Part shown: in pieces, positions 1-42,649 of the stretch
Position numbering within the stretch: the stretch's first letter is position 1
Layout: every line of letters starts with the position of its first letter
DNA from: a virus
Taxonomy: Duplodnaviria > Caudoviricetes
Length of the DNA stretch: 64,000 nucleotides
Strand: one strand, 5' to 3'
IMG/VR virus record: IMGVR_UViG_3300037067_012088
Span: 64,001-128,000 of that record
Made by a program: the position numbers and the translations under genes
The notes under the pieces: generated by a model
Database searches by the model: none
The model's input: the letters and a program-made list of their open reading frames with translations, nothing else
What the model was told of the DNA's origin: nothing

Positions 1-927
1 GGGATTCTGAATCGACACGCGGATGTTCTTGGGGCTGTTGGAGCAGATCAGGTCACGATAGGAACCGGTGATGAGGTCACCGAAGTAGAATGACGCAGAT
101 ACGTTCAGCGGGACCGGGAATGTAGGCACCAGCGCGTAAGGGAACAGGCTACCCAGCTTATTCAGCGGCTGAATATTCGTATCGAAGTTGATGCTATACG
201 ATTGGGCCTTGAGATCCGAGATGGAAAGGCCAACCGCCGCGTCGGAGATATCAAGGGTAATATCCGAGGGGCGAAGAGCCGCCGCAGTCGGGGCGATGCC
301 GCTGGAGATAACCGGCAACGTGAAGATCTTATTCGGCACATAGCCGCCCGTGTTCGAAATGTCGATGGCGTAGAGCGGCTGGTTGACGGAGCCCGTGTAG
401 GTCGCGTAGTTGAGTCCGCGCAGGGCGATGGTGGTTGTCGGAATGTTGCCAACAGAACCTTCCGTGGACCACGAGGCGAGCTGACCATTGCTAATCAGTT
501 CGCACTGAGATTGGCCGGTCCAACCGATGGCGTCAACACCTTCAGGGGCAAGAGCGATGAAGTAGTTTTTGGTGGCCTGAGATTGGTCAAGAATCGGACC
601 AAGGGCACCTTGACCGGAGACGTTAAACCCGAGGATGCGCTCGTTGGATAGATCGGCCACGTAATAGCTGAAACCCATCGGAACGGTTGGCGGCTGGGTG
701 ATTTCTTGCGAAACGTAAGCAAGTTGACCACCCTGATTGATGATCGTATAGTCCTGAGAAAGACCGTTCGTGATAGACTGGATACGTTGAAGGTTCTGAA
801 TCAGGTTAATACCGGAGTTAGACCCCGTATAGACGTTGTTAAAGCCGGTGTTGAACATGAACCCGGTTGCGGGGGACGGGGAGACCAGAAGGCCATATGC
901 TTGGTAGAAGCGTCTTACAGTACTCAA
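1..927 (-). CDS. putative major tail tube protein (runs off the window start; absent from the ORF track)
   Basis: Manual translation from TTG at 927: MSTVRRFYQAYGLLVSPSP...LQRIQSITNGLSQDYTIINQGGQLAYVSQEITQPPTVPMGFSYY..., open for 309 codons; own late promoter at 965-990; follows neck genes. Confidence 0.6.
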   Translation of the reverse strand, partial: MSTVRRFYQAYGLLVSPSPATGFMFNTGFNNVYTGSNSGINLIQNLQRIQSITNGLSQDYTIINQGGQLAYVSQEITQPPTVPMGFSYYVADLSNERILGFNVSGQGALGPILDQSQATKNYFIALAPEGVDAIGWTGQSQCELISNGQLASWSTEGSVGNIPTTTIALRGLNYATYTGSVNQPLYAIDISNTGGYVPNKIFTLPVISSGIAPTAAALRPSDITLDISDAAVGLSISDLKAQSYSINFDTNIQPLNKLGSLFPYALVPTFPVPLNVSASFYFGDLITGSYRDLICSNSPKNIRVSIQNP

Positions 928-964
928 AGGATTAGGTGGTTAAAGGGTTAGCTGTTGATAGTGA

Positions 965-5990: not shown

Positions 5991-6410
5991 TCAGCGCGCC
6001 GGAGCCATGATCTTGCGCAGAATCGCCTCGTTCTCGGGACTCATGCTAATCGGGATATTCTGGCGCGGAATCGCTGCCGCTTGAGTCTGCAAAAACCGCA
6101 CATGAAGGCGATCAACCAGACGGTTACGGTCATCAATGGGAACCTCACCAACGGCCACGGCGTGGTCATACAGCTCCGTGCTCTCCATCCTTTCCAGTTT
6201 GGCGATGTAGACATTGGCGTCGGCCGTATCGTAACCGGTCAGATACTGGTGAGCGGAGGTCGTGGCGGCGCGGGTGGCACCATGAGCCTGAGAGTAGTCG
6301 CGGGTGTCGAACTTGACGGCGGCAGTGGTCTCTTCGGTGTCGTTAACGCGAGGTTTGCGCGAACGGGTCTTAGCAGGCGCAACGGTTTTGGTAGCTGTTT
6401 TCTTTGCCAT
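5991..6410 (-). CDS. hypothetical late protein
   Basis: Start placed at MAKKT; late promoter upstream. Confidence 0.6.
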   Translation of the reverse strand: MAKKTATKTVAPAKTRSRKPRVNDTEETTAAVKFDTRDYSQAHGATRAATTSAHQYLTGYDTADANVYIAKLERMESTELYDHAVAVGEVPIDDRNRLVDRLHVRFLQTQAAAIPRQNIPISMSPENEAILRKIMAPAR

Positions 6411-6466
6411 ATAGTAGTTTTCCTTATTCCGCACCCGCCGCATGAGCGCATAGGGAGCATAGACAG

Positions 6467-6492
6467 ATACACCGTTTTGGGGTGGGTTTACC
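6467..6492 (-). promoter_or_regulatory. phage late promoter
   Basis: Consensus GGTAAAC-N11-CGGTGTAT. Confidence 0.8.
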
Positions 6493-6495
6493 CAA

Positions 6496-6527
6496 CAAAA
6501 AAGACCCGGTGGTTAGCCGAGTCTCGT
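6496..6527 (-). terminator. intrinsic terminator
   Basis: AGACTCGG-loop-CCGGGTCT then T run on minus strand. Confidence 0.7.
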
Positions 6528-6548
6528 AGAGATAACGAAATCTGAGTA

Positions 6549-7229
6549 TTAGAACCCCTGATTCAAGGTGTTACTCACGTAGGTGGGGTTATATCCGGAG
6601 AATGCAATCCCACCAATTCCGCATCCAGTGGTAGTAAGAGCGTAGCTGTTGAGTCCGGAGGCCGAAATGAACGTCCCCATGCATCCGCTCAAGTAGTTGC
6701 CTACGTAACTCGTATTCGTGTTCAAGAAACTCTTGCGCCACGACCAGTTGTTGCGCACATAGGCATCGAAGTCCGATGAGGAAAGCTCCACCTTGTCCGC
6801 GACGCTGAAATCGAGCAGATCGATAACCCGGTCATAGTCTTCGAGGTGGTTCTCGGGATAGGTAAGGGGCCATGCCGGGGTGAATTCTAAGCCGAACGAG
6901 AGAGAGTGGTTGACCGAGAACACACCGAACATTTTATCCTTGTTCTGGGCCGCCACATTGGCTTGCATGTCAGTATATTGGCGACTGAAGTCAACTTCGA
7001 GTCGCTCAGTTTGGGTGGCAAATGCCTTGGTCACCTTGGAGACGGCTTCGGTGAACTGCTCCTTCTTTCGCTCGACTACCTTCTGTGCCTCCAGCCAGTA
7101 TCCTGATACCGCTGCGTCAAAGATCGAATTGTGCTTGTCTCGGTTACTCCGAAGAGTCTCCAGTAGTTTGGTCTTCTCGACCACAACCGTATTAAATGTC
7201 GTTACCGACAGGTCTTTATTTTCGCTCAT
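6549..7229 (-). CDS. hypothetical late protein
   Basis: 226 aa; own late promoter and terminator. Confidence 0.65.
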   Translation of the reverse strand: MSENKDLSVTTFNTVVVEKTKLLETLRSNRDKHNSIFDAAVSGYWLEAQKVVERKKEQFTEAVSKVTKAFATQTERLEVDFSRQYTDMQANVAAQNKDKMFGVFSVNHSLSFGLEFTPAWPLTYPENHLEDYDRVIDLLDFSVADKVELSSSDFDAYVRNNWSWRKSFLNTNTSYVGNYLSGCMGTFISASGLNSYALTTTGCGIGGIAFSGYNPTYVSNTLNQGF

Positions 7230-9250: not shown

Positions 9251-9276
9251 ATACACAAATTCTTGAGGGGTTTACC
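9251..9276 (-). promoter_or_regulatory. phage late promoter
   Basis: GGTAAAC-N11-TTGTGTAT. Confidence 0.75.
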
Positions 9277-11164: not shown

Positions 11165-13168
11165 TCATGTTGCCTCCTCGATGCGGGCTTTATGCAGCAG
11201 TATCGCCGTCCACTCGTCCACCTCGAACTCCAGCCTGATCCCGTCAATCTCATTCGCGATATCAACTGGGATGTCCTTGGGGTCTTTGATATATGAGGCT
11301 ATCGCCTCGTCCCACTTATCTTGGGGTTCGTTGACCACGATGGAGCGAGCGACCGCTGCCGCTAAATCACCTTGGACGCCGTCTAGTTTCTTGAGCTTGA
11401 AAGCCTTCTGGTAAGCCTTCTCTACCTTGGCGCGAACCGCATCCATGATGGGGAGGGTCTCTACAATCTTGGCCTGACTAAGCTGGATACTCGCGCGAGA
11501 CGTGCCAACGGGACTGATTTTCTTGCTCGTCTGCTTGGCTTTGGAACCGGCAGGACGACCGTTCGGGCCGCCTTCGCCTTCCTTGGGTCCACCCACTAGA
11601 GGCATGTAATAACCCTTGTCGCGGTCGGTCTTGTATTCCGCCTGACGTTCCTCAGAGTCTTCGCGCGTGGGAAGGATGCCAGTCTTGAGCGCGTCGTTAA
11701 GCTGGTCAGGAGTGAGCAGACCAAGTTGTGCCATCTGGGCATAGATGCGGTTCATCACGGCGCCGTCCTCAAGGTTAATCTCCTCGAACTCCACCAGCGG
11801 GATGTTGCGGAAACCCATCGCCTCGCACACCTTCTTAATCTCGGGGCGCAGGAAGTCGTTCAGGAAAGCCTGTCGCCCCTGACTGAGCACCTGCACAAAC
11901 ATCTTGGCCTTGATGGAAGCGGTGGCGAATTTCTCGTCACCGAAAAGGGTGAACTGAAGACCCTCCTTGATATACTTGTTGACCACCTCATACTTCGCCG
12001 GCCCGAGCAGCTCCTTGAGGTCGGGAATCTTCCACTCCATCTTGGTCGTCCAATCGGACACGAGCACGCGCCCAACCGAATTGTTCTGGAAGATGGCTTG
12101 AAGGCGCTGAAGGGTCTCCTTGCCCATCGGCGGGTTCTTGTCGTCGGCCGGCGCACCAGCGGTAACAAGCAAGAGGGCCTGTTCCACCATGCGCGCCATC
12201 GACATGTCCATGCGCTTCAGTTCCAACATCCACTCAATATCGTTTAACACCGGCCAGACCATCGGCACCGCGAGGGGCTCGTAGTCCTGCTTGCGGTAGA
12301 ATACGTAATAGAGGCGTTTCGTATCAAGCGGCGCCCAGATGTAGGGGTAGGAACCGTAGTTCTTGATCTGCTCCTGAATATACTTGGGGAAGGACTTGAG
12401 CACCTGTTTGTCTTCGGGCGTCTGAGGATCGCGCAACCGCTGAAGCTCATATGTCGAGAGCATCTTGGAGAAGTTATAGGCGTAGGTCGGCCCGATTTGG
12501 AGGCTCATCTGACCCGGATTCAAGATGATATAGCGAATGGGCAGTTCGGGGCTCTTGGCGGAGAAGGCGGTTTCGAGAGTCTTGAACTTGTCGGGGGCGA
12601 TAGCTCCGTTGAACTTGTAGATGAATACGTTGCCTGAGCGGTAGTACTCTCTGAAGAATTGAGGCTGAAACGAAGAGAGACCAATCGTCTCGAACCAGTG
12701 CAGGAAGAACTTCTTAACCGTCTTATTGGGACACTTAACACGAAGGTTCCCAATGGAGAAGTCGGTGTAAAGATCGATAGCGTTTCGTATTTGCGAGACG
12801 TTAAAATAAGCGGCAAGAGTGATATCGATAACCGCCCCCATGGAATACCCTCCATTCCTCTCCGTGAACGGGATAACACCACTGCTGATGTTGCGATAAG
12901 CGTTTGTGTCAGCAATCGAGTTGGCCCACGTATTGCGACCTACCGACCCACCGGTTCCGCCGCCACACGCAGCTAAAGCGGTAAAATGATCTTTGGCAAA
13001 CACCGGAGCCACGCTCGCGGCCGACTGATCCAGCAGAGCCTTGTAGGTCTCTGTATCTACCGCGCGAATCGAAGAAGCAGCGGTCGCCTGAGGGGCCTGA
13101 GCCCCCGCAGATAGCTGTTTCCTTCCTTCCCAGTAACCAGTATCCTTCTTGACATATGATCTCGACAT
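11165..13168 (-). CDS. portal protein
   Basis: 667 aa between terminase and protease; FFREYYRSGNVFIY segment. Confidence 0.75.
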   Translation of the reverse strand: MSRSYVKKDTGYWEGRKQLSAGAQAPQATAASSIRAVDTETYKALLDQSAASVAPVFAKDHFTALAACGGGTGGSVGRNTWANSIADTNAYRNISSGVIPFTERNGGYSMGAVIDITLAAYFNVSQIRNAIDLYTDFSIGNLRVKCPNKTVKKFFLHWFETIGLSSFQPQFFREYYRSGNVFIYKFNGAIAPDKFKTLETAFSAKSPELPIRYIILNPGQMSLQIGPTYAYNFSKMLSTYELQRLRDPQTPEDKQVLKSFPKYIQEQIKNYGSYPYIWAPLDTKRLYYVFYRKQDYEPLAVPMVWPVLNDIEWMLELKRMDMSMARMVEQALLLVTAGAPADDKNPPMGKETLQRLQAIFQNNSVGRVLVSDWTTKMEWKIPDLKELLGPAKYEVVNKYIKEGLQFTLFGDEKFATASIKAKMFVQVLSQGRQAFLNDFLRPEIKKVCEAMGFRNIPLVEFEEINLEDGAVMNRIYAQMAQLGLLTPDQLNDALKTGILPTREDSEERQAEYKTDRDKGYYMPLVGGPKEGEGGPNGRPAGSKAKQTSKKISPVGTSRASIQLSQAKIVETLPIMDAVRAKVEKAYQKAFKLKKLDGVQGDLAAAVARSIVVNEPQDKWDEAIASYIKDPKDIPVDIANEIDGIRLEFEVDEWTAILLHKARIEEAT

Positions 13169-13176
13169 GGCTTCTT

Positions 13177-13202
13177 ATACACCCAAATCGACCCGGTTTA
13201 CC
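13177..13202 (-). promoter_or_regulatory. phage late promoter
   Basis: GGTAAAC-N11-GGGTGTAT, 8 nt from ATG. Confidence 0.75.
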
Positions 13203-13228: not shown

Positions 13229-16200
13229 TTACTTGATAAACGGATACTGCGCTGGCCCACCAATCAGCACCGGCACGAACCCGATATCCCCATCAACCGG
13301 CGGCAAGTTCATGGCATTCGTGTAGATATACAAGCACCAGTTGGCAAGGAGCAGCGCGGAATACGAGTCCTTACGCACCTTGTTGCGCGTCTTGCCCGCG
13401 CGCTTCATGTGAGAAGGTAGGTCCCAAGAGAGGTGGCCGAGACCATTCGATTTGAGTTCGATGAGGGCGCACTCCTTCTTGACGAGGTCCATGAGCAACT
13501 CCTGATGCGCGATGAAGTCGTCCTTGGGGCCGCCGACCGTGGTGTTGCCATCCTCACTCTTGGCGTTAAAGGCAGAGTGGACATCCAAGATGCGATCAAT
13601 CGACTTTTCCATCAAGATATCGAAAGAGGGTTTGTGAGCGCGAGGTTTGCCAGCGAAAACGATGTTGCGGTTGTCAAAACAGGCTTGAAGATGCTCGTTC
13701 GCGGCGCGCTGAAAATCGGAGTGGAAGTGCTGAGGATGAACATAGCGCCCGGCCATGCGATTGTAGCTCTGCTGAACCTGCTTGATGACCTCAGATGAGT
13801 GCTCCTTGCCGAAATCCGCCTCAATGGAGGCTAACATGATCTTCTTTTCTCGGAACAGCTCGGACTCGTTACAGATGTTGATAAAGCCGAGATTCGCGCC
13901 CTGAGAAGCGTCAAACCCAATGTAGACTATCTTGAAGGCCGTGAGCAGATAATAGAGGTATTCGATGTGCTCCTTAAGCGAGACTTCGCCCGACTGCGCG
14001 TATTGGTGGACCACCATGCCTATCTTGCGGATCGAGTCGTCGGACATCTTGCGCTCGACAATCTTGAGGACACACATGGCGAAGTGGTCAGAGTTCTCCG
14101 AATCAGATGCGTTTTGGTCAATACCAAGGACGTATTCGGCGTTAGGGTCACCCACAATCTCGACGCAAGGAGATTGGCCATCCTCAATGGTGCAGTTCTT
14201 CATCTTGGAGGCGCGGAAAAATCCGTCAGAGTCGCTGACAAACGCACTTTCGTATTCTCGCTTAATGGTAGTCTCAGAATACATGCCACTCTCGATTTCC
14301 TTCTTGATCGCCTTTTCCACGCGATCTTCATTGGCGACCTTCCATGAGAGTTGATGAACAAGATAGGAACCACCACCATAGCCCGCGATCTCTTCTGCGC
14401 TCTGTTCACCATGGATGATGCCGAGATACTTCTTGTAAAGCTCGTACAGATACTCCCATGAGTAGCTGGCGCTACTGATAACGATCATCTTGTTCTCCGA
14501 CTTGAACATCTCGCGCTGCTCTTCGGTCATGTGCCCGGCGGCGATGAGTCGGCTCTCCTTTTCGCGAATTCGCATACGCCGATTCACCTCAGTTTCGGAG
14601 GGGGTGAACAAGAACGGCTTGAGCACATTGTCGATGGTCGATTGAGAGATAAGAAGACCTTCGTCGATACCCAGCACGTTGGCACGAATACCACGAAGGC
14701 GATTAGGGTCGCCCAGCGGGACCGCGATGATGGAAGAACCGTTCTTGAACTTGATGGTATACTTGTCCGGCTTCTTCATCAAGTCTCCATCCATGGTCTG
14801 GCGAAGGAGAGTGCCGCCGGGGAAGCCCGCTTCATAGTCTGGCTTAGACCGAGACCACTCGTCGATATTCTCAAGAATCTTACGGCTCGACTTGAACTGA
14901 CCGCCGCTGACGATACAGATGTGCTTACCCGGATTGAGGATACAATAGAGGTAGCAGAAGTGACCATAAAGCCAGCTATTGTGATTGATGAAACCATCGC
15001 TCCAGTAGCATGCCTCGTTGGCTACTTGGATGTCAATGGAGACGGTATCGACCGGCTTGATCAACTTGATGGACTCGAAGTGATAGTCCTGACTCAAGAT
15101 AGCGTCAAGCTTGCCCTTGTCCTCTTGGTCGAGGAAATCGAATTGACGCACCTCCTTAAGGCGCGCTTGCGAGATTGATTTATGCAGTTTAATCCCCTTG
15201 TGGCGGAACTGGAATGGTCGATATTTGGTGCGGAAGTAGGCCCCGAGCGGGAGTAGGTTGTGATGGAAGGTGCTCGTTCCGGTGTTCGCTAGGTAACGGT
15301 TGACATTGTCCTGCTTGTATCCGATGCCGAATCCAATTTCCTTGGAGAATATCTTAACGTGCTCTCGATTGCTGATCTTCAGCGTCCACGCATCGTTCGT
15401 GTCATACGTTTTGCCATTCGCGAACTCTTGTGGGCCGCTCTTGTGGGTTAGATTGATGTAGGAAACGATGCCGTAGTTCAGTAGCACCGATTGGGTGGTC
15501 TTAAGGATGTCCCACGAAGACGAAGTAAGAGCGACCATACCACTCCATTGACTGCCCGAACCTTCGTGCTTGACAACCGAAAAACCATCGGTATCGAAAA
15601 GGCCACGAAGAAAGGCGGACATGTGGGGTTTGGACACCCCCAACACGCCTCGCGGAAAGACCTTCTTGTGGGCCTTCTCACCACAGAATCCCATGTGATA
15701 TAGGAACTGTTTAAAGAGAACGCTGGAGAACTCGTAGGACGTGGCTGTGGTCCCCGCTTTCTGGGATGCCCTGACAGGACGCCCGTCGATATAGCGAGGA
15801 ACGATGTCCAACATGAAGTCCCTTATCTCCTTATCGTCCGAGGTGACGCCAATGGCTCCCGGCACACCGCGAATACATCCATCACCCAAGAGGAGGCCGA
15901 GGAAGTAGTAGAGGTCTCTCTCGTGCTTGGGGGTAATTTCGTTGGCTTGTGCGGCGGCCTTTCCGATGAACGACTCAACGGGGTTCTTGTCCGCCCACGC
16001 ATCCATACCATGGCGAATCGGAATGATCTCGTTCCCGTCGAAGTCCTCGATGTTCTTCCATTCCATCTGAGCAGTAGAGGGGTTGAGATAGTAAACCTTA
16101 TGTCCCGTCTTACCCCTACACGTGAATCCACTACGAGTGACTATCTCGAATCCATCCTCCTTCGGGTTGACCGTCTTGCCCTCGATAGGCTGGAATCCCT

Positions 16201-16540
16201 TGTCTGCCCAAATCCTTTCACCCACGTAGGTTTCCTTTATGGCCTTGAGACCGTTTTCGGTCAAGACGATTGAATTCTCGTCGATACACTTCGACCAGCC
16301 ACGTCCGGCGACGGTAAGAGAGAAGTTCTTCTGAAGCCACCCCTTGAGCACGATTCGTTGGTCGGAATAGAGTATCATGCCCGTTAGCAAGCGCACTAGG
16401 AACCCGATATTGTAGCGCAGAAATCCGCCTAGCGTGATGCGTGCATCCTCTTCGGTGAGTTCACCAGCCAGTTTAAGGTAGGTGGCGTTCAGGTCCTCGC
16501 GCTCAGGATCGGGTCTATCAGTTGGGAGTGGGAACCACAT
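13229..16540 (-). CDS. terL: terminase large subunit, intein-containing
   Basis: Walker A AGRGWSK/S split by intein, LRGIRANVLGIDE Walker B, YVLGID nuclease motif, C-terminal RKDSYSAL. Confidence 0.9.
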   Translation of the reverse strand: MWFPLPTDRPDPEREDLNATYLKLAGELTEEDARITLGGFLRYNIGFLVRLLTGMILYSDQRIVLKGWLQKNFSLTVAGRGWSKCIDENSIVLTENGLKAIKETYVGERIWADKGFQPIEGKTVNPKEDGFEIVTRSGFTCRGKTGHKVYYLNPSTAQMEWKNIEDFDGNEIIPIRHGMDAWADKNPVESFIGKAAAQANEITPKHERDLYYFLGLLLGDGCIRGVPGAIGVTSDDKEIRDFMLDIVPRYIDGRPVRASQKAGTTATSYEFSSVLFKQFLYHMGFCGEKAHKKVFPRGVLGVSKPHMSAFLRGLFDTDGFSVVKHEGSGSQWSGMVALTSSSWDILKTTQSVLLNYGIVSYINLTHKSGPQEFANGKTYDTNDAWTLKISNREHVKIFSKEIGFGIGYKQDNVNRYLANTGTSTFHHNLLPLGAYFRTKYRPFQFRHKGIKLHKSISQARLKEVRQFDFLDQEDKGKLDAILSQDYHFESIKLIKPVDTVSIDIQVANEACYWSDGFINHNSWLYGHFCYLYCILNPGKHICIVSGGQFKSSRKILENIDEWSRSKPDYEAGFPGGTLLRQTMDGDLMKKPDKYTIKFKNGSSIIAVPLGDPNRLRGIRANVLGIDEGLLISQSTIDNVLKPFLFTPSETEVNRRMRIREKESRLIAAGHMTEEQREMFKSENKMIVISSASYSWEYLYELYKKYLGIIHGEQSAEEIAGYGGGSYLVHQLSWKVANEDRVEKAIKKEIESGMYSETTIKREYESAFVSDSDGFFRASKMKNCTIEDGQSPCVEIVGDPNAEYVLGIDQNASDSENSDHFAMCVLKIVERKMSDDSIRKIGMVVHQYAQSGEVSLKEHIEYLYYLLTAFKIVYIGFDASQGANLGFINICNESELFREKKIMLASIEADFGKEHSSEVIKQVQQSYNRMAGRYVHPQHFHSDFQRAANEHLQACFDNRNIVFAGKPRAHKPSFDILMEKSIDRILDVHSAFNAKSEDGNTTVGGPKDDFIAHQELLMDLVKKECALIELKSNGLGHLSWDLPSHMKRAGKTRNKVRKDSYSALLLANWCLYIYTNAMNLPPVDGDIGFVPVLIGGPAQYPFIK
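14978..16288 (-). mobile_element. intein with LAGLIDADG homing endonuclease (437 aa)
   Basis: Begins CIDENSIVLTENG, ends GFINHN followed by S; FLGLLLGDG and FLRGLFDTDG motifs. Confidence 0.9.
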
Positions 16541-17516: not shown

Positions 17517-18770
17517 TTAGGCGCCCCTGATAGCCTCTTGGCGCGATTGTCCCGCTATCAAAGCCACCACCGAATCGAAGTTGGACAGTCTATCGAACTC
17601 CTTCTCGTCCGCCAGATGCTCGGCCTGACCTTGACTGATAAGCCCCTTGCGCGCGTCTTCATCCTTCTGCCATGCCTCAAGCAGGGGCAGCACCGATTCA
17701 CTTCGGCGCGTCTTGAGATCCTCACGTTCCGAGCGCGTGGATTCGAGAGTCTTGATGAGGGTCGCGTATTCCTTGACGCACTTGTCGAGCTTCTCTTGGG
17801 TGCCGTTCACCAGTTCCACCATGTTCTGCGAGAGGACGGCGCGCCCCTTTTCATCGGTTGACTCCATCTGCTCCTCCATTTGCTGCACGATCTTCTGGAG
17901 GCGGCGCTCCGTCTGTGCGATCTTGACCTTGGCTGCGCTGGCTTGGATGTAGAGATTCTGGTCGGCGGAGGTGAGGTCCGGCTTGTCGTGAGTCAGCGTG
18001 ATGAAATGGCTCTCGAACAAGGTCCGCTCCATCTTCTTGACATACTGTTGGGCTTGATAGCGGAACGATACGCTCTTGACGTAACCCATCAGCGCGTAGA
18101 GGCACTTGTATTCGAGGGGCTTGAGCGCGTCGCCCTTGTAGGCGTTCTTGCCCGGGTCCATCGGGTTGCTGACGTAGCCATTGACTCGTCCGACCATTTC
18201 CATGATGGACTTGCACGGCTTGTATTCGGCGGATTCAACTGGCTCGTCCCACATGTCCAACGCCGATTCGTTATACTCCTTGACGAACTCGAAGATGGCC
18301 TTATACTCGCGCGAACCGGGTTTGACCACCATCACCTCGGGGAATATCATGCGCACCAGTTCGTTTAGCTTGGGCGGATTGGGGGAGTTGAGCAACGAGA
18401 CGATGGAATCAACCTGCTGCTGGGTCAGGACGATCTTGCCCTTGTTGACGTATTGAGTAGTCTTGATGACCTTGGGCGGCTCCGTGCCATCAGGATTCAG
18501 AGTAGCGATGTAGGCTTTGATGGACTTGGCTTCAGTGTGGTGGCCGTTAAGGGTCGGATTGCCAAACGCCTGTCTGGTCAGTTCCTTCAATTCGAGCTTA
18601 TCCCAGTTGGCACGGGTGAAGGTCTTCTGCTCCTCAGTCAACTCGACGATCTCATAGTTGGCATTGACGTAGTTGCCCTGACGCTTGGGCTTCTTGGTGG
18701 GCTCGGGAGTCTTGGGAGACTCACCAGTCTCGGTAACCTCGTCTAGCGGGAATGGGGGTTCGTCACTCAT
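17517..18770 (-). CDS. hypothetical protein, possible terminase small subunit
   Basis: 417 aa with C-terminal coiled coil; position only. Confidence 0.4.
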   Translation of the reverse strand: MSDEPPFPLDEVTETGESPKTPEPTKKPKRQGNYVNANYEIVELTEEQKTFTRANWDKLELKELTRQAFGNPTLNGHHTEAKSIKAYIATLNPDGTEPPKVIKTTQYVNKGKIVLTQQQVDSIVSLLNSPNPPKLNELVRMIFPEVMVVKPGSREYKAIFEFVKEYNESALDMWDEPVESAEYKPCKSIMEMVGRVNGYVSNPMDPGKNAYKGDALKPLEYKCLYALMGYVKSVSFRYQAQQYVKKMERTLFESHFITLTHDKPDLTSADQNLYIQASAAKVKIAQTERRLQKIVQQMEEQMESTDEKGRAVLSQNMVELVNGTQEKLDKCVKEYATLIKTLESTRSEREDLKTRRSESVLPLLEAWQKDEDARKGLISQGQAEHLADEKEFDRLSNFDSVVALIAGQSRQEAIRGA

Positions 18771-19483
18771 GTCAAATCCATGTCCATCATGATTTGGCGC
18801 GCCATCTTGATGAAGCGATTTCGCGCTTTGGTGATGGCAATCGGAGTGCGGGTGATACATGTGACCTTAATACCCATCTCCTTAGCCACCCGCTTAATCG
18901 GCCAATGCCGGATATAGATGAGTCGATACAGTTTAGCATCGCTCTTGGTCAGCTTCTTGAGCATGACCTTGTCGAGGGCAGCCTTGTGACCCTCTGTGTC
19001 CGCGAAATCAGAGGGAATGTTGTGATGCTCATCGGTGTGGGATTCAAGGGACATTGGGGCCGACAGATTCGCTTGAACTCCCTTCTTCTTTTCCCATGCA
19101 GCGTAAAGAGGACAATGACAGTCTTGCTTACCGGTCGGACTCTTGTGCCAATGACAGATAGAATCCCCCCCATTGAAGCGACAGGGGACCCCGTATACAC
19201 CTGAAGCCAGACATGGGCGCGCTGCTTTGAACAAGTGTTTCCTCAACATGTTGATGATGGCGTTCGTCAACACCGTGTTGCACCACTTGTCGAATGGACG
19301 CGATACGTCATACTGGTGAATCACTTTCCACACGTGAACCATCAACTCGCTCGACACATCCTCAAAGGGCATGGTCGTGAGCACCCACTTGCTGCGCCGC
19401 TGGTTGACCAGCCTCTGTATCTCGGCGTAATACTGATTGAAGAGGGCGGTGTTACCCTCTGGTGGCTGCTTGTCGGCGGCCAT
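18767..19483 (-). CDS. phage sigma70/ECF-like sigma factor with Cys-rich insert
   Basis: Region 2 (FEDVSSEL..YDVSRPFDKWCNTVLTNAIINMLRK), region 4 HTH (LTKSDAKL..IKRVAKEMGI). Confidence 0.75.
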   Translation of the reverse strand: MAADKQPPEGNTALFNQYYAEIQRLVNQRRSKWVLTTMPFEDVSSELMVHVWKVIHQYDVSRPFDKWCNTVLTNAIINMLRKHLFKAARPCLASGVYGVPCRFNGGDSICHWHKSPTGKQDCHCPLYAAWEKKKGVQANLSAPMSLESHTDEHHNIPSDFADTEGHKAALDKVMLKKLTKSDAKLYRLIYIRHWPIKRVAKEMGIKVTCITRTPIAITKARNRFIKMARQIMMDMDLT

Positions 19484-23034: not shown

Positions 23035-24471
23035 TTAGATTCCCAAGGAATATTTATCGTTTAAATATCCGATAATAATATCTTGCTGGGCGGTGTTGTG
23101 GGCGGTGTTGAAGACGAGGACTTCGGAAGCGGTGATGTTGCCGAAATCAGTGGTATTTCCTCTTGCTCCAAGAATGAATCCGTTCATGGAATCAGAGCCG
23201 GCGTTCCCCGTGGTCGCGGCGACACGATTAATTCGGATTAAAGACGACGCACCGTTAAATCCGACTGTTACTATACCTTGAGTGGCCACAGCCAATCCGG
23301 TGGTGAAGATGGTTCCTCCGGCATAGGCAGTTAAACGCGGCGTAGTGATATCCTGCAAAAGTCCTCCGCTTAATGCGGTATTGCCATCAAATATATGATC
23401 CGTGTTCGTCCACGTCACCTGTTTGCCCACAAAGTAAACCGTTGTCGGTTGAGCCAACGTAAACGCCCCCGTCTTGAGATAGTCATTGGTCCCATCGAAG
23501 TAGAGGCAGCTCGCCGTGACCACGGTCGCGCCGCCATTCAGGGTAATGGTCGCCGCATTCACCGAGCTATCCGTAAACGTCGTGCCCGAGACATAGGTGG
23601 CGGGATTGAAGTCGAAGCGGAGATCCGTGCCATCAAGACCGGCGTAGATTTGGGTGCGATAGATGCGGCCGGCAAAAGACTCAAGGGTTCCTTGGGTTGA
23701 ACTTCCAATCTCTAGCGCATTACTCCCGTTGAATATAGATGTCGTTCCAGCAGTCGTTACGGGACTACCTAGCTGTGTCCACGTAGTGCCATTGAGCGAT
23801 GTGTAAAATATAGCAGTCTTGTTTCCTGCCCCATCATCCACGTCCAGCGTGACACGAATCCATAATGGATCTAAATTCGTGACGCTCGGGGCCACAGTTG
23901 AGTCATATACCACGTTTGCGGCGCCGCTATTACCTACCGGATTGGTTACCAGTCTGATGACTCCGGTTGTTGCAATCACTTGCAACATATAGCATCGATT
24001 GTTTGTTGTCCCGTCGAATTTAGCAATAATGGCCTGCGTAGAGCTTGGGGTCCAATCAATCGCCGCACAATACGCACGCAGATCAATATCTCCAGTAATA
24101 CTCACCGCCGCCGAATCCGGAGTCGAGAAGTAGTTCCCCGCCACCCCATTCAGATACCCATAGTTATTCCCCACCCCACCCCCATGCGGCAGCCAAGTTG
24201 GCTGGTTAGCCGCAGTAACCTGTTGCAGGCTCTTGTTGAGCGTGATACGCGAGGGCGCGAGGTTGAGCCATTGGGAGACGGTGTTGGCCGCGCCAACGGT
24301 GAGGCCGTAGCCGCCCATATAATGTTGGACGCAAGAATCGTTATACAGATTGGCCTTGGCGAGCTGACCGAGGAGCTGTGCGTCGCGCTGACTCAGGCCG
24401 GCGAAGCCGAGCTTCGTGAGCTTGTTGGATACGTTCTTGACGACGACAGGGACTTGATAGAGCTTGGCCAT
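23035..24471 (-). CDS. LamG/ConA-like fibre or receptor-binding protein
   Basis: LEIGS..FAGRIYRTQIY lectin-fold signatures; paralog of next gene. Confidence 0.65.
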   Translation of the reverse strand: MAKLYQVPVVVKNVSNKLTKLGFAGLSQRDAQLLGQLAKANLYNDSCVQHYMGGYGLTVGAANTVSQWLNLAPSRITLNKSLQQVTAANQPTWLPHGGGVGNNYGYLNGVAGNYFSTPDSAAVSITGDIDLRAYCAAIDWTPSSTQAIIAKFDGTTNNRCYMLQVIATTGVIRLVTNPVGNSGAANVVYDSTVAPSVTNLDPLWIRVTLDVDDGAGNKTAIFYTSLNGTTWTQLGSPVTTAGTTSIFNGSNALEIGSSTQGTLESFAGRIYRTQIYAGLDGTDLRFDFNPATYVSGTTFTDSSVNAATITLNGGATVVTASCLYFDGTNDYLKTGAFTLAQPTTVYFVGKQVTWTNTDHIFDGNTALSGGLLQDITTPRLTAYAGGTIFTTGLAVATQGIVTVGFNGASSLIRINRVAATTGNAGSDSMNGFILGARGNTTDFGNITASEVLVFNTAHNTAQQDIIIGYLNDKYSLGI

Positions 24472-26399
24472 TAGAGGGAGATACCGAACTTGGTTGCCTC
24501 GTATTGGATCACGAGATTCTGGGTGGCGGTATTATGGGCTTCGGAGTAAACCACCACCTCTTGGGCGGTGATGTTGGCGGGGTTGGTTGCGTCACCTCTT
24601 GCACCAAGAGTAAACCCACCGGCATTGTTGGTGCTCGCGTTTCCGGTGGCGGCGGCGGCCCGATTGATGCGAACACTTGAAGACGCCCCGTTAAATACGG
24701 CAGAGACAATCCCGTTTGTCCCCGTGGCCAAAGAGACCGGGCCGATTCCGTTTCCGGCGCTTGCGGTAATTTCTGGCGTTAGGGCCGCTTGCCGAAGCGA
24801 CATTCCGAGGAGAGTATTGCCGTCGAGGATACCATCCGCGTTCGTCCACGTCACCTGACTCCCCACAAAGTAAACCGTCTCCGGCTGGCTCAAGGAGAAC
24901 GCCGCCGCCTTCAAGTAGTCATTGGAGCCATCAAAGTAGAGGGAGGTCTTGGTGACGATGTTCGCACCACCGTTGATGGTCCATGTCTCAGCAGCGCCAC
25001 CCGTGAAGGTGGCTCCACTCGTATAGAGGCCGGGGTTATAGTCGGCCACAAGCACCCCATCGTCATAGACTCGGAATCGCTGGATGTTGCCATTGAAGTA
25101 GGAGGCAGCGAGCAACCCAAGCGTCCATGTGCCGCTGGTTAAGGCTCCGGTCCCAACCACGCCGCTGCCATTAGCGGTCCAATTGGTTCCGTCTGAACCG
25201 TAATAGTGATTAATGGCTCCAGTCGCGGTGTTATAGACCATTCGCACCCATGTTCCAGTTGTCGTCAGGCCGGGCGGGGGGATTGTCGCATCCTTCGTTG
25301 ATGTGCGAGTCCAGCGGACATTACCGGAGGAAAGTATTCTGATGGACCCCTCTGCCGCCGTGGTAGATAGCATGTAGGGGTTGCTGGCAAAATTTCGGCA
25401 CAGGGCAAAAAACTGAATATCAATCTCCCCGCTGGTCGCGTTTACTGTGGCAGTAAAGCTAGTTCCAGCGGTGCCATTCAAATACCCATAGTTCGTCCCA
25501 CTCCACGGCAGATAAACAGGCTGGTTAGCCGCCGTCCCCTGATACAAGTCCCGCGCTCCACTGATGCGGGCTCCCGTGGCTCCACTGGTGTTGATCGTGA
25601 CGGTGGCCGCGTTGCTGCTGGATTCGGGGAAGCTGGTGGCGAGCTTGCTAGCGGTGGCGAAGTTGGCGTCGAAGGCCAGCGTTCCGGCGATGCCATTGTA
25701 GATTTGGGCGCGGTAGATTAGGCCGGAGACAACGCTTGCCGTTCCAACAAATGACGAACCGATTTCCAAAACATTTGTTCCGTTAAAAATAGCACCACTG
25801 GTAATCGCTACCTGAGCGCCCAACTGAGTCCATGAAACGCCATCCGTGGAGGTATAGAAATTAACATTTCCAGAGGCGCTTGCGTATGTTGCGCGAATCC
25901 AACTGCGAGAAAAGTCTGTAATCCCTGTCGCTACTGTTGAAATTGCAGTTCTTCCCGCCGTGGTAGAACCGTCGCTAGTATAAATAAACCTAACCGTTCC
26001 ATCAGTCGAAACGAACAGGCTATAGCATCTATTGCTAGTCGTGTCCTTTGACACAAGGGCCTGAACCCCGGCGGGAGTCCAATCGTTGAGGGCTACATCG
26101 CACCGCAAATCAATATCCCCCGTAATGCTCAGCGGCACACTATCCGGCGCACTCGCATAATTCCCCACCACCCCATTCAGCACCAAGCAATTCACTGAGC
26201 TGTTACCGGACTTGTCGGAGACTAGCTTTATTCCTTCGCCGGTGCTGGGGACTGCGCCTGCATTGTTGCGCAAACTACCAATGTCGGAGATATCATACAA
26301 CGCCGCCAAATTAGGCAATTGTTGTGGCCGAATAAAGTTCTGAAGTCCCACAAAGGACCCGCCGCGTCTAGGATACCGCGATAGACCGATCTGGGCCAT
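24471..26399 (-). CDS. multi-LamG-like fibre or receptor-binding protein
   Basis: 642 aa, two internal LamG-like modules plus shared C-terminal module. Confidence 0.65.
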   Translation of the reverse strand: MAQIGLSRYPRRGGSFVGLQNFIRPQQLPNLAALYDISDIGSLRNNAGAVPSTGEGIKLVSDKSGNSSVNCLVLNGVVGNYASAPDSVPLSITGDIDLRCDVALNDWTPAGVQALVSKDTTSNRCYSLFVSTDGTVRFIYTSDGSTTAGRTAISTVATGITDFSRSWIRATYASASGNVNFYTSTDGVSWTQLGAQVAITSGAIFNGTNVLEIGSSFVGTASVVSGLIYRAQIYNGIAGTLAFDANFATASKLATSFPESSSNAATVTINTSGATGARISGARDLYQGTAANQPVYLPWSGTNYGYLNGTAGTSFTATVNATSGEIDIQFFALCRNFASNPYMLSTTAAEGSIRILSSGNVRWTRTSTKDATIPPPGLTTTGTWVRMVYNTATGAINHYYGSDGTNWTANGSGVVGTGALTSGTWTLGLLAASYFNGNIQRFRVYDDGVLVADYNPGLYTSGATFTGGAAETWTINGGANIVTKTSLYFDGSNDYLKAAAFSLSQPETVYFVGSQVTWTNADGILDGNTLLGMSLRQAALTPEITASAGNGIGPVSLATGTNGIVSAVFNGASSSVRINRAAAATGNASTNNAGGFTLGARGDATNPANITAQEVVVYSEAHNTATQNLVIQYEATKFGISL

Positions 26400-31694: not shown

Positions 31695-31879
31695 GTGAAT
31701 CCGCCAAACGCATGTCCTACGGTGTTGCCGACACGAGTAAGTGCCGTGTATGGGGTATTGGGTGGCTTAGCTTTGGGCGCACTGAGGTTGTCGTCGACGA
31801 GGTGACCTATCGCACATTCTACGTGCGCCTCGGACCCACGTGGGGCAGTCTCCAACTGAGTATCATCCGCTCGGATTAA
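31691..31879 (+). CDS. hypothetical protein
   Basis: GTGA overlap with previous stop. Confidence 0.4.
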   Translation: MSESAKRMSYGVADTSKCRVWGIGWLSFGRTEVVVDEVTYRTFYVRLGPTWGSLQLSIIRSD

Positions 31880-38153: not shown

Positions 38154-39191
38154 TTACGAAAGCGCGAGAACCGTCTTGCCCCGGGCAAGTGTCGCCTCAA
38201 TCGCCTTGTCGTCGCGGATAAGGTCCCAAGCACCGGCCTTGGCGGTCTGCCCGCTGCCGAATTCGCTGGAAACGAACTGGCGCATACGGTCGTCACCCCC
38301 CGCGTTTTCATGGCTGTAATAGTCAGTCGCCGCACTGAACCAATCGGCGCGGTTTTGACCCTCGTTACCGGCGCCCCGGACAAACAGCTCGGTCAGGCGA
38401 TTAACCTGATTGGCGCGGCGCGTTGACATGGGCTCCTTAACCTCGGTGCGCGCGGTCAGGAAACCGGCAAAGAGGGCATTGGCGTCGTCAATCTTGATGG
38501 GTGCGGCAGCCAGCTTGTCCATTTCCAGCTTGAACAGGGCTTGCGCGCCGTGAAACCCGTCAACGATTTCGGGCACGTTTTCCAGCCGTTCCATGACGTT
38601 TTTGGTATGCTTCATGACGACGCGAACGGCCTTGGCGGACTCACTGGCGGACTGGGCAGCCTTCATGCCGGAGCGTTGGGATAAGGAAGACAGGTTCATG
38701 CCAAACGTGTTATTGCAGACTGTGCAAATGTTGCTCGTGTTGACCGCGAACGGCGCGGACATGTCATGTGAGCTGAGAAAATTAAGGTAGGGCACGAAGG
38801 ACCGCCCGGCAGCCTTAAACTCGGCCAGCTCCTCCAGCTTGACGGAAACGAAGATGCGGGAACGACCGCAAACGCTGCCAACACTGGCAACCTTGGCGCC
38901 CGGGATTTCGCGGATAGCCGTATTGATGATACGCAGGAAATCGGCGTTCGTGACCAGCCCGTAAGACTCGCAATGCACCGGGGCACCAATGCGGATTTTC
39001 GGGTCATCCGTGCAAGTGATACGGCAGTATTCCGAAGCGGAGCCGTCACCCTCCAGCATGGGAACCTTGGACACGTCCCATTGGGCGAGCCATGAAGACA
39101 GGAGTTCAATCAGGGGTTTGACGACGGTGAGCTTGTGCCAGCCCATTTCAATACCCTCTTGGCGGTCGATGTTGGTGATTTCGTGTGACAT
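38154..39191 (-). CDS. DUF932-family protein
   Basis: GWHKL..Y.LVTN..SSHD..CTVCNNT..KHT..DYYSH pattern. Confidence 0.85.
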   Translation of the reverse strand: MSHEITNIDRQEGIEMGWHKLTVVKPLIELLSSWLAQWDVSKVPMLEGDGSASEYCRITCTDDPKIRIGAPVHCESYGLVTNADFLRIINTAIREIPGAKVASVGSVCGRSRIFVSVKLEELAEFKAAGRSFVPYLNFLSSHDMSAPFAVNTSNICTVCNNTFGMNLSSLSQRSGMKAAQSASESAKAVRVVMKHTKNVMERLENVPEIVDGFHGAQALFKLEMDKLAAAPIKIDDANALFAGFLTARTEVKEPMSTRRANQVNRLTELFVRGAGNEGQNRADWFSAATDYYSHENAGGDDRMRQFVSSEFGSGQTAKAGAWDLIRDDKAIEATLARGKTVLALS

Positions 39192-39610: not shown

Positions 39611-39805
39611 TTAGGGGGTGTGGGTGGCGCGAGCTTTGGCAGCGCAATTCTGGACGCTACTGATTGAGACCGTATGACCTTGGGCCATGGCTGACACTAT
39701 GCTGTCAAACTGCTTGGCAGCGTTGGCAAGGGCGGCCTCAAGCAGCTTTTCCCGTAGTGCGTAGGCGCCGAGTTCGGCTTTCATTTGCTGGATATTGGCG
39801 GTCAT
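39611..39805 (-). CDS. hypothetical protein
   Basis: Start placed at MTANIQQ. Confidence 0.55.
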   Translation of the reverse strand: MTANIQQMKAELGAYALREKLLEAALANAAKQFDSIVSAMAQGHTVSISSVQNCAAKARATHTP

Positions 39806-39806
39806 G

Positions 39807-39959
39807 TTAGGCGCGGTTAAGGTGGAGTTTCGGGCAGGTGCGGCGCAAGACCCGGCGGGCTTGGTGCGGCGACATGTGGGCGGCGGCGAGACGTGAAAGC
39901 ACACGATTAACGCGGCCGGCAACATTGGCGATGAAGGACAGGCGGTCAGTTTTGGACAT
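39807..39959 (-). CDS. 50 aa basic peptide
   Basis: MSKTDRLSFIANVAGRVNRVLSRL..; abuts next start. Confidence 0.5.
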   Translation of the reverse strand: MSKTDRLSFIANVAGRVNRVLSRLAAAHMSPHQARRVLRRTCPKLHLNRA

Positions 39960-40001
39960 GGTGGGCGGGAGTTGAGGTTAGCGGGTTGGACGGGAAAAGG
40001 A

Positions 40002-40352
40002 TCACTCAAGCCCCCAGCACTCGCGGGAGGCAGGGGACAAGCCCCGGTGATAGGAGGGACGGGCACGCTCCCGGGCTTCGTCGTCTTCAATGGCGGCGAG
40101 CGCGGCCTTGCTCAGGGTGGCGGGGACAATATCGAATTGGGACAGGGGCACCCAATGCGGCGCACAGGGGGAGCGCTCAAGCCGGACGAACACCTCGCCG
40201 GCTTTCGGCCCGCTCAGGACGGTATAGAGCCCGTCATAGGTGCAATCGTTGCCGTTGCTAAGGGAGTGAAGGGTGCGGCCCTTGAGAGAGCCGAATTTGT
40301 GTTCGTCGTGCTGAACAGCGGGAGCGTATGAGTAATAGGTGGGAGAATTCAT
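40002..40352 (-). CDS. hypothetical early protein
   Basis: 116 aa. Confidence 0.6.
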   Translation of the reverse strand: MNSPTYYSYAPAVQHDEHKFGSLKGRTLHSLSNGNDCTYDGLYTVLSGPKAGEVFVRLERSPCAPHWVPLSQFDIVPATLSKAALAAIEDDEARERARPSYHRGLSPASRECWGLE

Positions 40353-40410
40353 GGGAAGAGTTGAGTTACTTTGAACACCGCCAATCTACAGCATGGCGCG
40401 AGTCTTGTCT

Positions 40411-40428
40411 GTAGGGTCGATCCCCTAT
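40411..40428. promoter_or_regulatory. TAGGG-N6-CCCTA palindromic box
   Basis: GTAGGGTCGATCCCCTAT. Confidence 0.7.
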
Positions 40429-40492
40429 TTTCGCTAGGGTGCTTCTCTCCCCTTCGCGCCGCTCCGGGGTGCGGCTCTGCCGCAGATTCTTA

Positions 40493-40518
40493 GGTAAACC
40501 CCTCTAGCTGCGGTGTAT
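40493..40518 (+). promoter_or_regulatory. late promoter facing non-coding DNA
   Basis: Consensus GGTAAAC-N11-CGGTGTAT on plus strand. Confidence 0.75.
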
Positions 40519-40524
40519 CAGTTA

Positions 40525-40850
40525 CCTGTTAGACTTCTTTCCACTAGGCGCGCACTCCTTAACTGGGTTTATCCCGGTCCCTCGTGTAACCCTTACTGAG
40601 TCAGTAGACTAACAGCGCACCGTGAATCGGTTCACCATTCAACTCTCAGGCCACGAGATTAAACGGCATGTCTAGACAGGACTGAAACAGGTCAAACCGC
40701 GCACCGGGTTTAGGGTGTAACGTAGCTCTTTGAGGTAGTCCATTCGTGACTATCACCCATGAGACCGCAAGACAGGCTAAGGCCGCTTGCGGCTTTGTCG
40801 CGTCTGTTTCGCGGGCCAAACGGCAGTCAGTCCCCTACAGCTAAAAGGTT
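40525..40850 (+). ncRNA. putative structured late ncRNA 1
   Basis: No ORF; nested helices whose mismatches read as G-U on the plus strand. Confidence 0.55.
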
Positions 40851-40894
40851 AGTATCCCGTAGGCAAGACGCAAGCTTAATCGGTGTAAAGAAAT

Positions 40895-41095
40895 CGTAAA
40901 GGATTCGTAAACGTAAATGTAAAGACCGCCGTGGCCGGAACCATGGGTAAGGAGATAGCGGGAAACGAGTAGGCTTGCATAAGAGCCTAGTCCAAGGGCA
41001 CTTAGGTAAACGGCCTTTGCGCGCAATCGGGGCGCCTAGTCAGTCTTTACGTTTACATTCAGCTCTAGGGAAACGACCCTAGCAGATTTACGCGA
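40895..41095 (+). ncRNA. putative structured ncRNA 2 (or 3' domain of ncRNA 1)
   Basis: 14 bp helix 40913-40926/41043-41056 enclosing hairpins; late-promoter variant at 40862-40888. Confidence 0.45.
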
Positions 41096-41492
41096 GCTTG
41101 GCATCCATTCGCGCGGTTGAGAATAGGTCTCATTATCACTCGCGAACGCGCCAAAAACGGCGCCTTTTCCCAGCACTAACATATTGAGGGAGTATAGGCA
41201 AAGAGTCAACACCTTTCCTCTAGGGTCCATTACCTAGGCGCGCCTAGGGTGTTTTGCCTACCTGACACTAGGGGATCAAAGATGCCCGTTTCGCGCGAAT
41301 TTTGCGCACTTGGCACGATTCCTTTTCGCTTATACGGGCATATCTAGCAAGGGTCTAGGCCACCATAGCCGGCCGCCCAGCCTTTCGCGTAACACGTTGC
41401 ACGGTAACGGAATACCCGTTTGCGGGTTTTGCGGTCGCGGGCCACCTAGTCAATCTTGTCGTTTACAATCCAGCATAGGGGAAACACCCTAG
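41065..41492. promoter_or_regulatory. cluster of four TAGGG-N6-CCCTA boxes
   Basis: 41065-41082, 41220-41237, 41244-41261, 41475-41492. Confidence 0.7.
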
Positions 41493-41660
41493 AGGAAACT
41501 GGCAGAGCTGGCATGAGGAGTGCGCGGCAAAGTGGAGCCAAAGTAGTTAGGTGCCTAATCATATTGGTGCGGGCAGGTGCGTAGGCGAGTGGTGAACTGT
41601 ATGAGTGGAGGTAGGACGGTAGTTAGGAGCCTAACTATTTAGTAGCGTCTCACTCATAGA

Positions 41661-41811
41661 CCACCCCTTTCCCCTCCTCCCTCACCCCTCTTTTTTACAC
41701 TCTCCCTTTATCTCTCTCCCTTGTATCCCCTTACGTTATCCTTACCCGGTTCTCTCTGTTCTCTCCTCCCTACTCCTTTCCCCTATCTGTTCTCCCTTTA
41801 CTCTGTTCTCT
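41661..41811. repeat. polypyrimidine/polypurine tract
   Basis: About 150 nt nearly G-free on plus strand; repeated CTGTTCTC. Confidence 0.8.
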
Positions 41812-41960
41812 AGGTGTCTAGGTAACGGGCTGGCAGGCCAGCCGGCCACCTAAGCCCCTAATCCCCCTATTTAGGTCACTGATTAGGTTAGGCTATCTCA
41901 AACCCTAGCGCTGCCCTGTTTGGCGCGGTTTACCCTGTTACTTAGACCAAAGGAAACGAG

Positions 41961-42173
41961 CTAGCCGGCCTTCCGTATCTTGGCCGCGCATTTCGGGCAC
42001 TCCGGCACCGTCTCACTTGCTAGCGATTCATCTAGACAGAGAAAATCAACCCGGCACCCACAAAGGGTCTTGCCAGTCTCTAGGTTGACCGCGTGATCCT
42101 GAAAGGCCACCTTTCCGCGCGCTTCCATATACTCGGCGCCCTTGCCTCCCATGGGATAGGTTTTCCATTTCAT
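41961..42173 (-). CDS. small zinc-binding protein
   Basis: H..TLCG..CPKC; TTGACA-N16-TAGGCT at 42181-42208. Confidence 0.65.
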   Translation of the reverse strand: MKWKTYPMGGKGAEYMEARGKVAFQDHAVNLETGKTLCGCRVDFLCLDESLASETVPECPKCAAKIRKAG

Positions 42174-42212
42174 GCGCGAAAGCCTACCCTTTGCGCCGTG
42201 CCTGTCAAGCGT

Positions 42213-42593
42213 TTAGCTCCGATAAGACATGACGCAAGAGGCATCACAAAAGGCGCGTCCGCTGGGGACGTATTCGCCTACGCTCCGGCCGCACCATTTG
42301 CACTCACTGGGGCGGGCACGCTCACAAAGCTTGCGTTGGGTCCGGTCAAACGTGGCCGGGGTATCCTGTTTGACCACCAAACCGCCCCGGCGGTTAATCT
42401 CGTTTTGACAGTAGCCAGAAAAGGCGCGCAACACGTCATAGCCGTTTCCGCCATCCCATGCGCTCGTAAAGGTCTCCCGGTAATGCGTGCTAAGGGGTTG
42501 CGAGCGAACTACGCGCAAGACTTTAACCACTTGACCGGCCGAAATGACGCGGCCAGAGGCAAGACGATGAAAGGGGAGGATGTTGGGGAGCAT
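42213..42593 (-). CDS. hypothetical protein with C-terminal zinc finger
   Basis: CKWCG..FCDASC. Confidence 0.6.
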   Translation of the reverse strand: MLPNILPFHRLASGRVISAGQVVKVLRVVRSQPLSTHYRETFTSAWDGGNGYDVLRAFSGYCQNEINRRGGLVVKQDTPATFDRTQRKLCERARPSECKWCGRSVGEYVPSGRAFCDASCVMSYRS

Positions 42594-42649
42594 GGTAGGG
42601 AGGTTAGTTTGATTGAACAGTGCCAAGCCTAACCGGCTCGCAAGTCATG

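Follow-up and report, generated by a model that had tools for sequence, protein, structure and literature searches.

A probable new late non-coding RNA with a conserved 5' module in the gene-free region of an uncultured ~190-kb phage

What is made from a perfect late-type promoter that is oriented against nearly all genes of a phage and points into DNA with no apparent protein-coding capacity? This question is raised by positions 40493-40850 of the window, i.e., the 64,000-nt stretch of DNA analysed here, which corresponds to bases 64001-128000 of a 191,387-bp IMG/VR virus record with an estimated completeness of 92%. Nearly all genes of this 191-kb phage are carried by the minus strand, and no ORF-poor stretch anywhere in the genome is longer than the one that includes the locus (40353-42092), a gene-free region that contains many palindromes and repeats. 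As judged from the nucleotide sequence and its comparison with two homologous loci, the element is probably a new phage non-coding RNA. The phage has no close cultured relative: nucleotide searches of INPHARED with its sequence came back empty, and the one large protein tested (24471-26399) showed remote matches only. At the right-hand edge of the gene-free unit (41961-42632), the coding strand is ambiguous, with one candidate ORF on the plus strand (42093-42632) that shows a weak HeH match below the cut-off and two candidate ORFs on the minus strand (42213-42626 and 41961-42173).

The promoter (40493-40519, plus strand) consists of GGTAAAC (40493-40499), a 12-nt spacer and GGTGTATC (40512-40519), and is a perfect match to a bipartite motif of which the 191-kb genome contains about 20 good copies. 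With few exceptions, the others are located on the minus strand, just 5' of ORFs in the structural arm, e.g., the copy at 13202 that precedes the portal gene (11165-13168); further copies are found at 9276, 11040, 21086 and 26988. Of the occurrences of the GGTGTATC half-site itself, 4 are on the plus strand and 19 on the minus strand. Thus, the claim of the preliminary description that a consensus late promoter stands in front of the element holds, in the sense that the sequence perfectly matches a class of motif that accompanies structural genes, an association that suggests late expression. The half-sites and their spacing resemble those of promoters recognized by ECF-type sigma factors. The phage encodes an ECF-like sigma factor (18767-19483, minus strand; Sigma70_r2 match of 34.8 bits, above the cut-off, and a weak r4_2 match), annotated in PHROG as 'RNA polymerase sigma factor', that probably reads the late-type promoter. 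Elsewhere in the genome, the start codon can follow GGTGTATC by as little as 4-11 nt, and because leaders at other promoter copies are this short, transcription of the element is predicted to start at about 40524-40527, which coincides with the beginning of the fold drawn in the preliminary description.

Two further observations concern the promoters and their neighborhoods. A second perfect plus-strand copy of the promoter is present at genome positions 31849-31875, 32,151 bases to the left of the window start, inside a 283-nt gap. A transcript from this copy would begin with ..CTAGACTAACCGCGC.., which matches positions 40605-40618 of the RNA at 13 of 14 positions; this likeness may be due to chance. 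The 1103-aa ORF that adjoins the portal gene (13229-16540, minus strand) contains a LAGLIDADG domain at residues 307-403, which may represent an intein in a packaging or replication protein.

Homologues of the element were identified on two contigs, so that the comparison set comprises three sequences: the window, the distant L006 and the close relative L145. The L006 homologue (6372-6668, minus strand) resides on a 90.7-kb Logan contig from a distant, AT-richer phage (42% GC) and matches the window element with an nhmmer E-value of 4e-13 and a cmsearch score of 330 bits. Within 10.5 kb, a DUF932 protein (57% identity) is the only thing that L006 and the window genome have in common. The L145 homologue (~620-946, minus strand) was reached through a neighboring 116-aa protein that is 92% identical to its counterpart in the window, and matches the covariance model with 100 bits (E-value of 1e-31). 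The promoter is found at the same place in L145 (GTCAAAC-N12-GGTGTATC), and L006 retains GTGTAT at the same spacing. The element is present in the phage genome in one copy.

Conservation within the element is highly uneven. The window and L145 are 82% identical across 39803-40633, neighboring genes included, with a 75-nt identical run inside the 5' module of the RNA, which is better preserved than the adjoining protein gene. The homology ends sharply at 40633; past this point, the L145 RNA shares only the motif CCCUACAG with that of the window, and a separate terminator lies farther downstream. The blocks kept between the window and L006 include TTAACTGGGTTTATCCCGGT plus CCCTCG, CTGAGTCA, CCATTCGTG, CCGCAAG, GCTTGCGG and GTCCnCTACAG. 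The first of these, a 26-nt block, is identical in all three sequences save for one extra C in L006. The protein adjoining the L006 copy has no relatives on record.

The homologues also bear on the coding potential of the locus. The ORFs that overlap 40493-40850 are all short (32-57 aa), and none of them survives the 1-, 2- and 4-nt indels between the conserved blocks in the comparison with L006, in agreement with the earlier statement that the region downstream of the promoter is free of ORFs. The possibility that a small peptide is encoded here was rejected given that neither a start codon nor a frame is kept. The element had further not been recognized as tmRNA, RNase P, 6S RNA or an intron, and the Rfam scan agrees: none of the 4227 models of Rfam 15 matches anywhere in the window at the gathering thresholds, and the two weak, unrelated matches obtained at E <=10 in 40300-42150 are both located away from the element. 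The homologous places in L145 and L006 match no Rfam model either. ARAGORN detected neither tRNA nor tmRNA over the window, the latter being defined by a tRNA-like acceptor/T-arm domain and a tag reading frame; the 6S RNA model (RF00013) produced no match, and the predicted folds of the element do not include the rod of about 180 nt, with its large central bubble resembling an open promoter, that typifies 6S RNA. A search of the literature on similar phage RNAs and on DUF932 yielded nothing relevant.

The structural part of the preliminary description fared less well. The RNA had been called highly structured, yet its minimum free energy is no better than that of shuffled sequences (z-scores: plus strand, -1.04; minus strand, -1.59). 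The proposed two-domain fold comprised nine helices, of which ACUGGG/CCCGGU and GUAGUC/GACUAU are kept and the other seven are not conserved across the homologues. In L145, the 'domain 2' as drawn is replaced by unrelated sequence. The collection of homologues, which had been suggested as a check, revealed compensatory changes in two hairpins; CUGUUAG/CUAACAG, the closing helix of the first domain, keeps 3-5 of its 7 pairs, with no compensation, and the six others (UUACUG/CAGUAG, GUGAA/UUCAC, GGACUGA/UCAGUCC, GGGUG/CACCC, GGCCG/CGGCU and CUGUUU/AAACGG) are disrupted or missing in L006.

The comparison of the three sequences points to a modular organization. The conserved 5' module of about 110 nt (40524-40633, plus strand) is common to all three phages. 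It contains the hairpin ACUGGG/CCCGGU with a UUUAU loop (40562-40578), which includes a U·G pair and is invariant in all three sequences, and a possible stem CUCG/UGAG with a 12-nt loop (40581-40600), which is feasible in all three but likewise invariant and hence uninformative. Near the end of the module, the hairpin ACCG[UGAAU]CGGU, loop in brackets (40619-40631; strands at 40619-40622 and 40628-40631), fits better than the originally proposed GUGAA/UUCAC. Its counterpart in L006 is AGUG[UGAUC]CACU, with two compensatory pairs, and that in L145 is ACCG[CUUGCAU]CGGU, with the same stem and a different loop. The module is followed by a variable middle part (40634-40734) that is partly deleted in L006 and unrelated in L145, and then by the hairpin GUAGUC[CAUUCGU]GACUAU (40735-40753). 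In L006, the latter is represented by GCUGGC[CAUUCGU]GUCGGC, with three compensatory pairs, one one-sided change and an invariant CAUUCGU loop.

The 3' part of the predicted RNA includes a putative terminator-like hairpin, CCGCAAG (40765-40771)/CUUGCGG (40786-40792), followed by a U-rich run (40765-40809 altogether); a terminator scan flags a site that overlaps this position. The stem recurs in L006, where it encloses another loop and precedes AUUUUGUAUUU; the U-run is good in L006 and weak in the window. Hairpin-plus-U-run signals are located 270-320 nt past the predicted start in all three sequences. Further downstream is the 3' motif GUCCCCUACAG (40830-40840), in which CCYCUACAG is kept in all three sequences, the otherwise unrelated 3' half of L145 included; this motif has one other occurrence in the 191 kb. 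In two of the sequences, the terminator-like hairpin precedes the conserved CUACAG. By complementarity, and with no covariation, the CUAC of the 3' motif can pair with the invariant GU(U)AG at 40528-40532; the GUUAG at the 5' end of the RNA has three possible pairing partners in all. A terminal helix formed by 40505-40517 and 40836-40843 was rejected because its 5' strand lies inside the promoter, upstream of the likely start.

Shuffling reproduces the compensatory changes rarely or not at all. None of 1000 column shuffles reached two local hairpins with at least two compensatory changes each. In a five-helix model, tested on an alignment that had been fitted to the model, pairing is complete (100% of the cells), with both partners changed in 6 pairs; this was equaled by 1 of 500 shuffles, and the slid controls gave 0. 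Because L145 hardly differs from the window in the 5' module, the covariation comes from one comparison, that between the window and L006. The preliminary description had also noted that the G-U pairs fit the plus strand, and this is indeed the case: the U·G pair of ACUGGG/CCCGGU and the two G·U pairs of the L006 hairpin GCUGGC/GUCGGC all become A·C mismatches on the minus strand. Therefore, the structure belongs to the strand that the promoter would transcribe.

These observations make it highly improbable that the locus is a chance arrangement or a decayed, functionless remnant of a gene. The ordinary fold energy and the poor conservation of most of the originally proposed helices would be compatible with such an origin. 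However, a 26-nt block with one inserted base, together with several other blocks, has survived between phages whose flanking sequences cannot be aligned; the compensatory changes exceed the shuffled expectation (0 of 1000, and 1 of 500 that equals it); and the 5' module is better kept than the protein gene next to it.

Conservation could also act at the level of DNA: an origin, a packaging signal or an injection-stop region might depend on protein-binding sites or on hairpins in single-stranded DNA, and any RNA would then be incidental. No other non-coding region is as large as the one in which the element lies, and palindromes and repeats abound there; the conserved stretch takes in the GTGTAT of the promoter, and the contigs of several relatives end near such regions. 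Yet the conserved hairpins are strand-specific, given that their G·U pairs turn into A·C mismatches on the other strand, and a perfect promoter points into the element in two phages. Moreover, the L006 element, with a GC content of 0.48-0.49, is embedded in non-coding DNA with a GC content of 0.19-0.35, and structured RNA genes are usually GC-rich within AT-rich surroundings. Taken together, we consider a purely DNA-level role to be quite unlikely.

The element occupies the beginning of a much longer gene-free unit, the rest of which (40850-42092, strand not assigned) contains repeats, boxes, a conserved block and purine and pyrimidine tracts. GTAAA(C)/GTTTAC repeats are present in both orientations at 40886-40926, 41045-41059 and 41459-41468; GTAAA(C) is the -35 half of the late promoter, and similar repeats are found in L145 and L006. 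The unit additionally contains TAGGG-N6-CCCTA boxes and, at about 41309-41340, the conserved block TTGGCAC..TTCGCTTATACGGGCA, which is shared with L006 in the form of TTGGCAC..TTCGC(C)TTATACGGGCA. This is followed by a purine tract (~41500-41650) and a pyrimidine tract (~41655-41810). The order of features downstream of the RNA is the same in the window and in L006, namely the short block, the purine tract and a pyrimidine tract of 150-190 nt; the L006 tracts are located at 6060-5680 on the minus strand, and the L145 contig ends at the purine/pyrimidine junction. The tracts are C-rich and G-poor on each incoming transcript, and by analogy the pair resembles back-to-back Rho loading sites. A 55-nt direct repeat is present at 41028 and 41438. 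A fold-back hairpin formed by the purine and pyrimidine tracts was rejected as being no more stable than shuffled sequences (z-scores of +0.79 and -1.84).

This arrangement is compatible, tentatively, with a different interpretation of the same module, as the 5' end of a longer (at least 1.1 kb) cis-acting late transcript that would run through the gene-free unit, past its GTAAAC-type repeats and operator-like boxes, to the pyrimidine tract, which, being C-rich and G-poor, resembles a Rho loading site under this scenario. Such a transcript could mediate processive antitermination of the put/EAR type, or else activate or prime a replication origin or a packaging site, for which ColE1 RNA II, the R-loops at T4 origins and T7 late transcription at the concatemer junction would be the models. 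In all three phages, the RNA is found in an unusually long gene-free stretch (window, 1.7 kb; L006, 1.6 kb; L145, at least 1.1 kb); the genes that flank it are unrelated, so that what is kept is the non-coding unit itself. The downstream feature order common to the window and L006, the fixed spacing between the module and the promoter, and the weak U tract of the terminator-like hairpin in the window also fit a long transcript. The hairpin-plus-U-run signals at 270-320 nt in all three sequences argue against it, as does the fact that L006 has no co-oriented gene downstream. Furthermore, the downstream sequence can be aligned in short blocks only, and cumulative GC skew is flat, with no clear origin signature at the gene-free region. 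Overall, we regard the long cis-acting transcript as possible but doubtful.

Comparison with known systems does not single out a close counterpart. Like the pRNA of phi29 (RF00044), in which two loops are complementary between molecules, the element would be a phage-encoded structured RNA that has its own promoter and resides in a non-coding part of the genome; packaging is also among the roles put forward in the preliminary description. However, there is no RF00044 match in the window element even at E <=10, and pRNA is an early transcript of protein-primed podoviruses with genomes of about 20 kb, whereas here the promoter is of the late type and the phage genome is 191 kb long. In addition, members of pRNA families retain a common fold at low sequence identity, in contrast to the long identical blocks and the swapped half of the molecule described here.

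The leader from lambda PR', HK022 put and Bacillus EAR share with this locus a late promoter, a promoter-proximal structured non-coding RNA and a terminator-like hairpin a few hundred nucleotides further on. The lambda PR' leader is the '6S' late transcript of 194 nt that ends at tR', and RNAs of the put/EAR type are promoter-proximal elements that cause RNA polymerase to read through downstream terminators into an operon. In the present case, the promoter-proximal position and the downstream hairpins are observed, but a co-oriented late operon is absent downstream. The late genes of this phage are each preceded by a separate promoter copy, and the next genes in L006 are on the other strand. 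There is no similarity in sequence or in Rfam.

With ColE1 RNA II, the R-loop transcripts of T4 oriF/oriG and the T7 primary origin, the locus has in common a strong promoter that points into a gene-free, repeat-rich region, a structured 5' part of the RNA and a purine-rich stretch further downstream on the RNA strand. It differs from these in that no initiator gene is adjacent, the GC skew is flat, no origin was identified, and the promoter belongs to the class of the structural genes rather than to the early or middle class. Finally, the element is comparable to the large and medium-sized orphan RNAs of bacteria and phages in Rfam (GOLLD, ROOL, HEARO, raiA, 6S, tmRNA and RNase P) in that it would be a conserved structured RNA, here one carried by a phage, but no Rfam 15 model matches the element of the window, L006 or L145.

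Of the earlier proposal, then, a probable undescribed late non-coding RNA remains, i.e., a non-coding, plus-strand element behind a late promoter that is conserved, shows compensatory changes and has no Rfam match; the two-domain fold does not. The interpretation that we prefer, with a confidence that amounts to about an even chance, is that the element encodes a previously undescribed trans-acting phage ncRNA in which a conserved binding module next to the promoter is combined with a 3' half that can be exchanged. In this scenario, a single-copy ncRNA gene of an uncultured ~190-kb phage would be transcribed rightward late in infection from the consensus phage promoter, probably via the phage ECF-like sigma factor, with the RNA starting at about 40524. 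The first ~110 nt would form the conserved module, with the invariant ACUGGG-UUUAU-CCCGGU and its invariant flanks followed by ACCG/CGGU. The second part, in the window and L006, would consist of the GUAGUC/GACUAU hairpin, the terminator-like hairpin and CCYCUACAG, which could pair with the 5' GUUAG and thus close the molecule. The invariant module could then be the binding site for a protein or RNA partner, through which the RNA would serve late in infection as a trans-acting scaffold or decoy, and the 3' part, swapped between lineages, would mainly provide stability and an end.

Besides the ordinary fold energy, two further observations count against the trans-acting interpretation. First, the long gene-free surroundings with common downstream features hint at a role in cis. 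Second, no antisense target is visible, given that complementarity between the RNA and the remainder of the phage genome never exceeds 12 nt; a target of this kind inside the phage genome was accordingly rejected. A bolder and unlikely variant is that the whole gene-free unit of about 1.5 kb, i.e., the late-promoter RNA with its invariant 5' module and exchangeable 3' half, the repeats similar to the -35 half of the promoter and the adjoining purine and pyrimidine tracts, is a conserved cis-acting centre in a lineage of large, so far uncultured phages with a sigma factor of their own. It might serve as a transcription-primed late origin or as a site of terminus processing or packaging, with the structured RNA doing the work. 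Alternatively, the RNA may be programmable, with a fixed 5' 'handle' and a variable 3' half that selects the target.

The distribution of the element is narrow by all the searches performed. The search of the INPHARED phage genomes by blastn with the window and L006 copies (E <=10) produced nothing or chance matches, and pattern scans of IMG/VR with four conserved blocks retrieved chance matches in coding DNA or terminators (L007, L008 and L085). In JGI metagenomes, one pattern gave 0 hits and another gave 55, all of which were rejected by nhmmer; in GTDB genome contigs, the patterns gave 0 and 0. No copy was found in 73 IMG/VR loci around DUF932 genes, nor in 43 whole IMG/VR records searched with the covariance model R1. 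Among about 12 Logan, JGI, ENA and NCBI contigs, mainly (ten) reached by DUF932 proteins, the element was detected in L006 and L145 only. The IMG/VR relatives reached via the portal protein are all fragments of 4-7 kb, and SRA assemblies were reached through proteins only. Within this scope, the RNA family looks confined to a narrow group of uncultured phages, represented mainly in SRA assemblies.

The DUF932 protein, which served as the main entry point to the relatives, is encoded at 38154-39191 on the minus strand and has 291 relatives at E <=0.001 in metagenomic phage contigs. A linkage between the RNA and DUF932 was considered and rejected: in L145, which has the RNA, other genes stand in the place of DUF932 at the locus, and many DUF932-containing phages have no RNA. 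Five contigs (L002, L003, L006, L149 and L150) stop 0-1.5 kb upstream of their own DUF932 gene; either the assembly may have broken off in a variable or repeated region, or the genome may end there.

To our knowledge, few phage-encoded ncRNAs with their own promoter have been described, and a role is known for fewer still. For a lineage with no cultured relative, the late-promoter class, its probable sigma-factor reader, the invariant 26-nt hairpin block and the modular build of the RNA together provide an experimental handle. If the RNA turns out to be tied to the conserved gene-free unit, it could show what sets off late replication or packaging in phages of this type, or how converging transcription is kept insulated.
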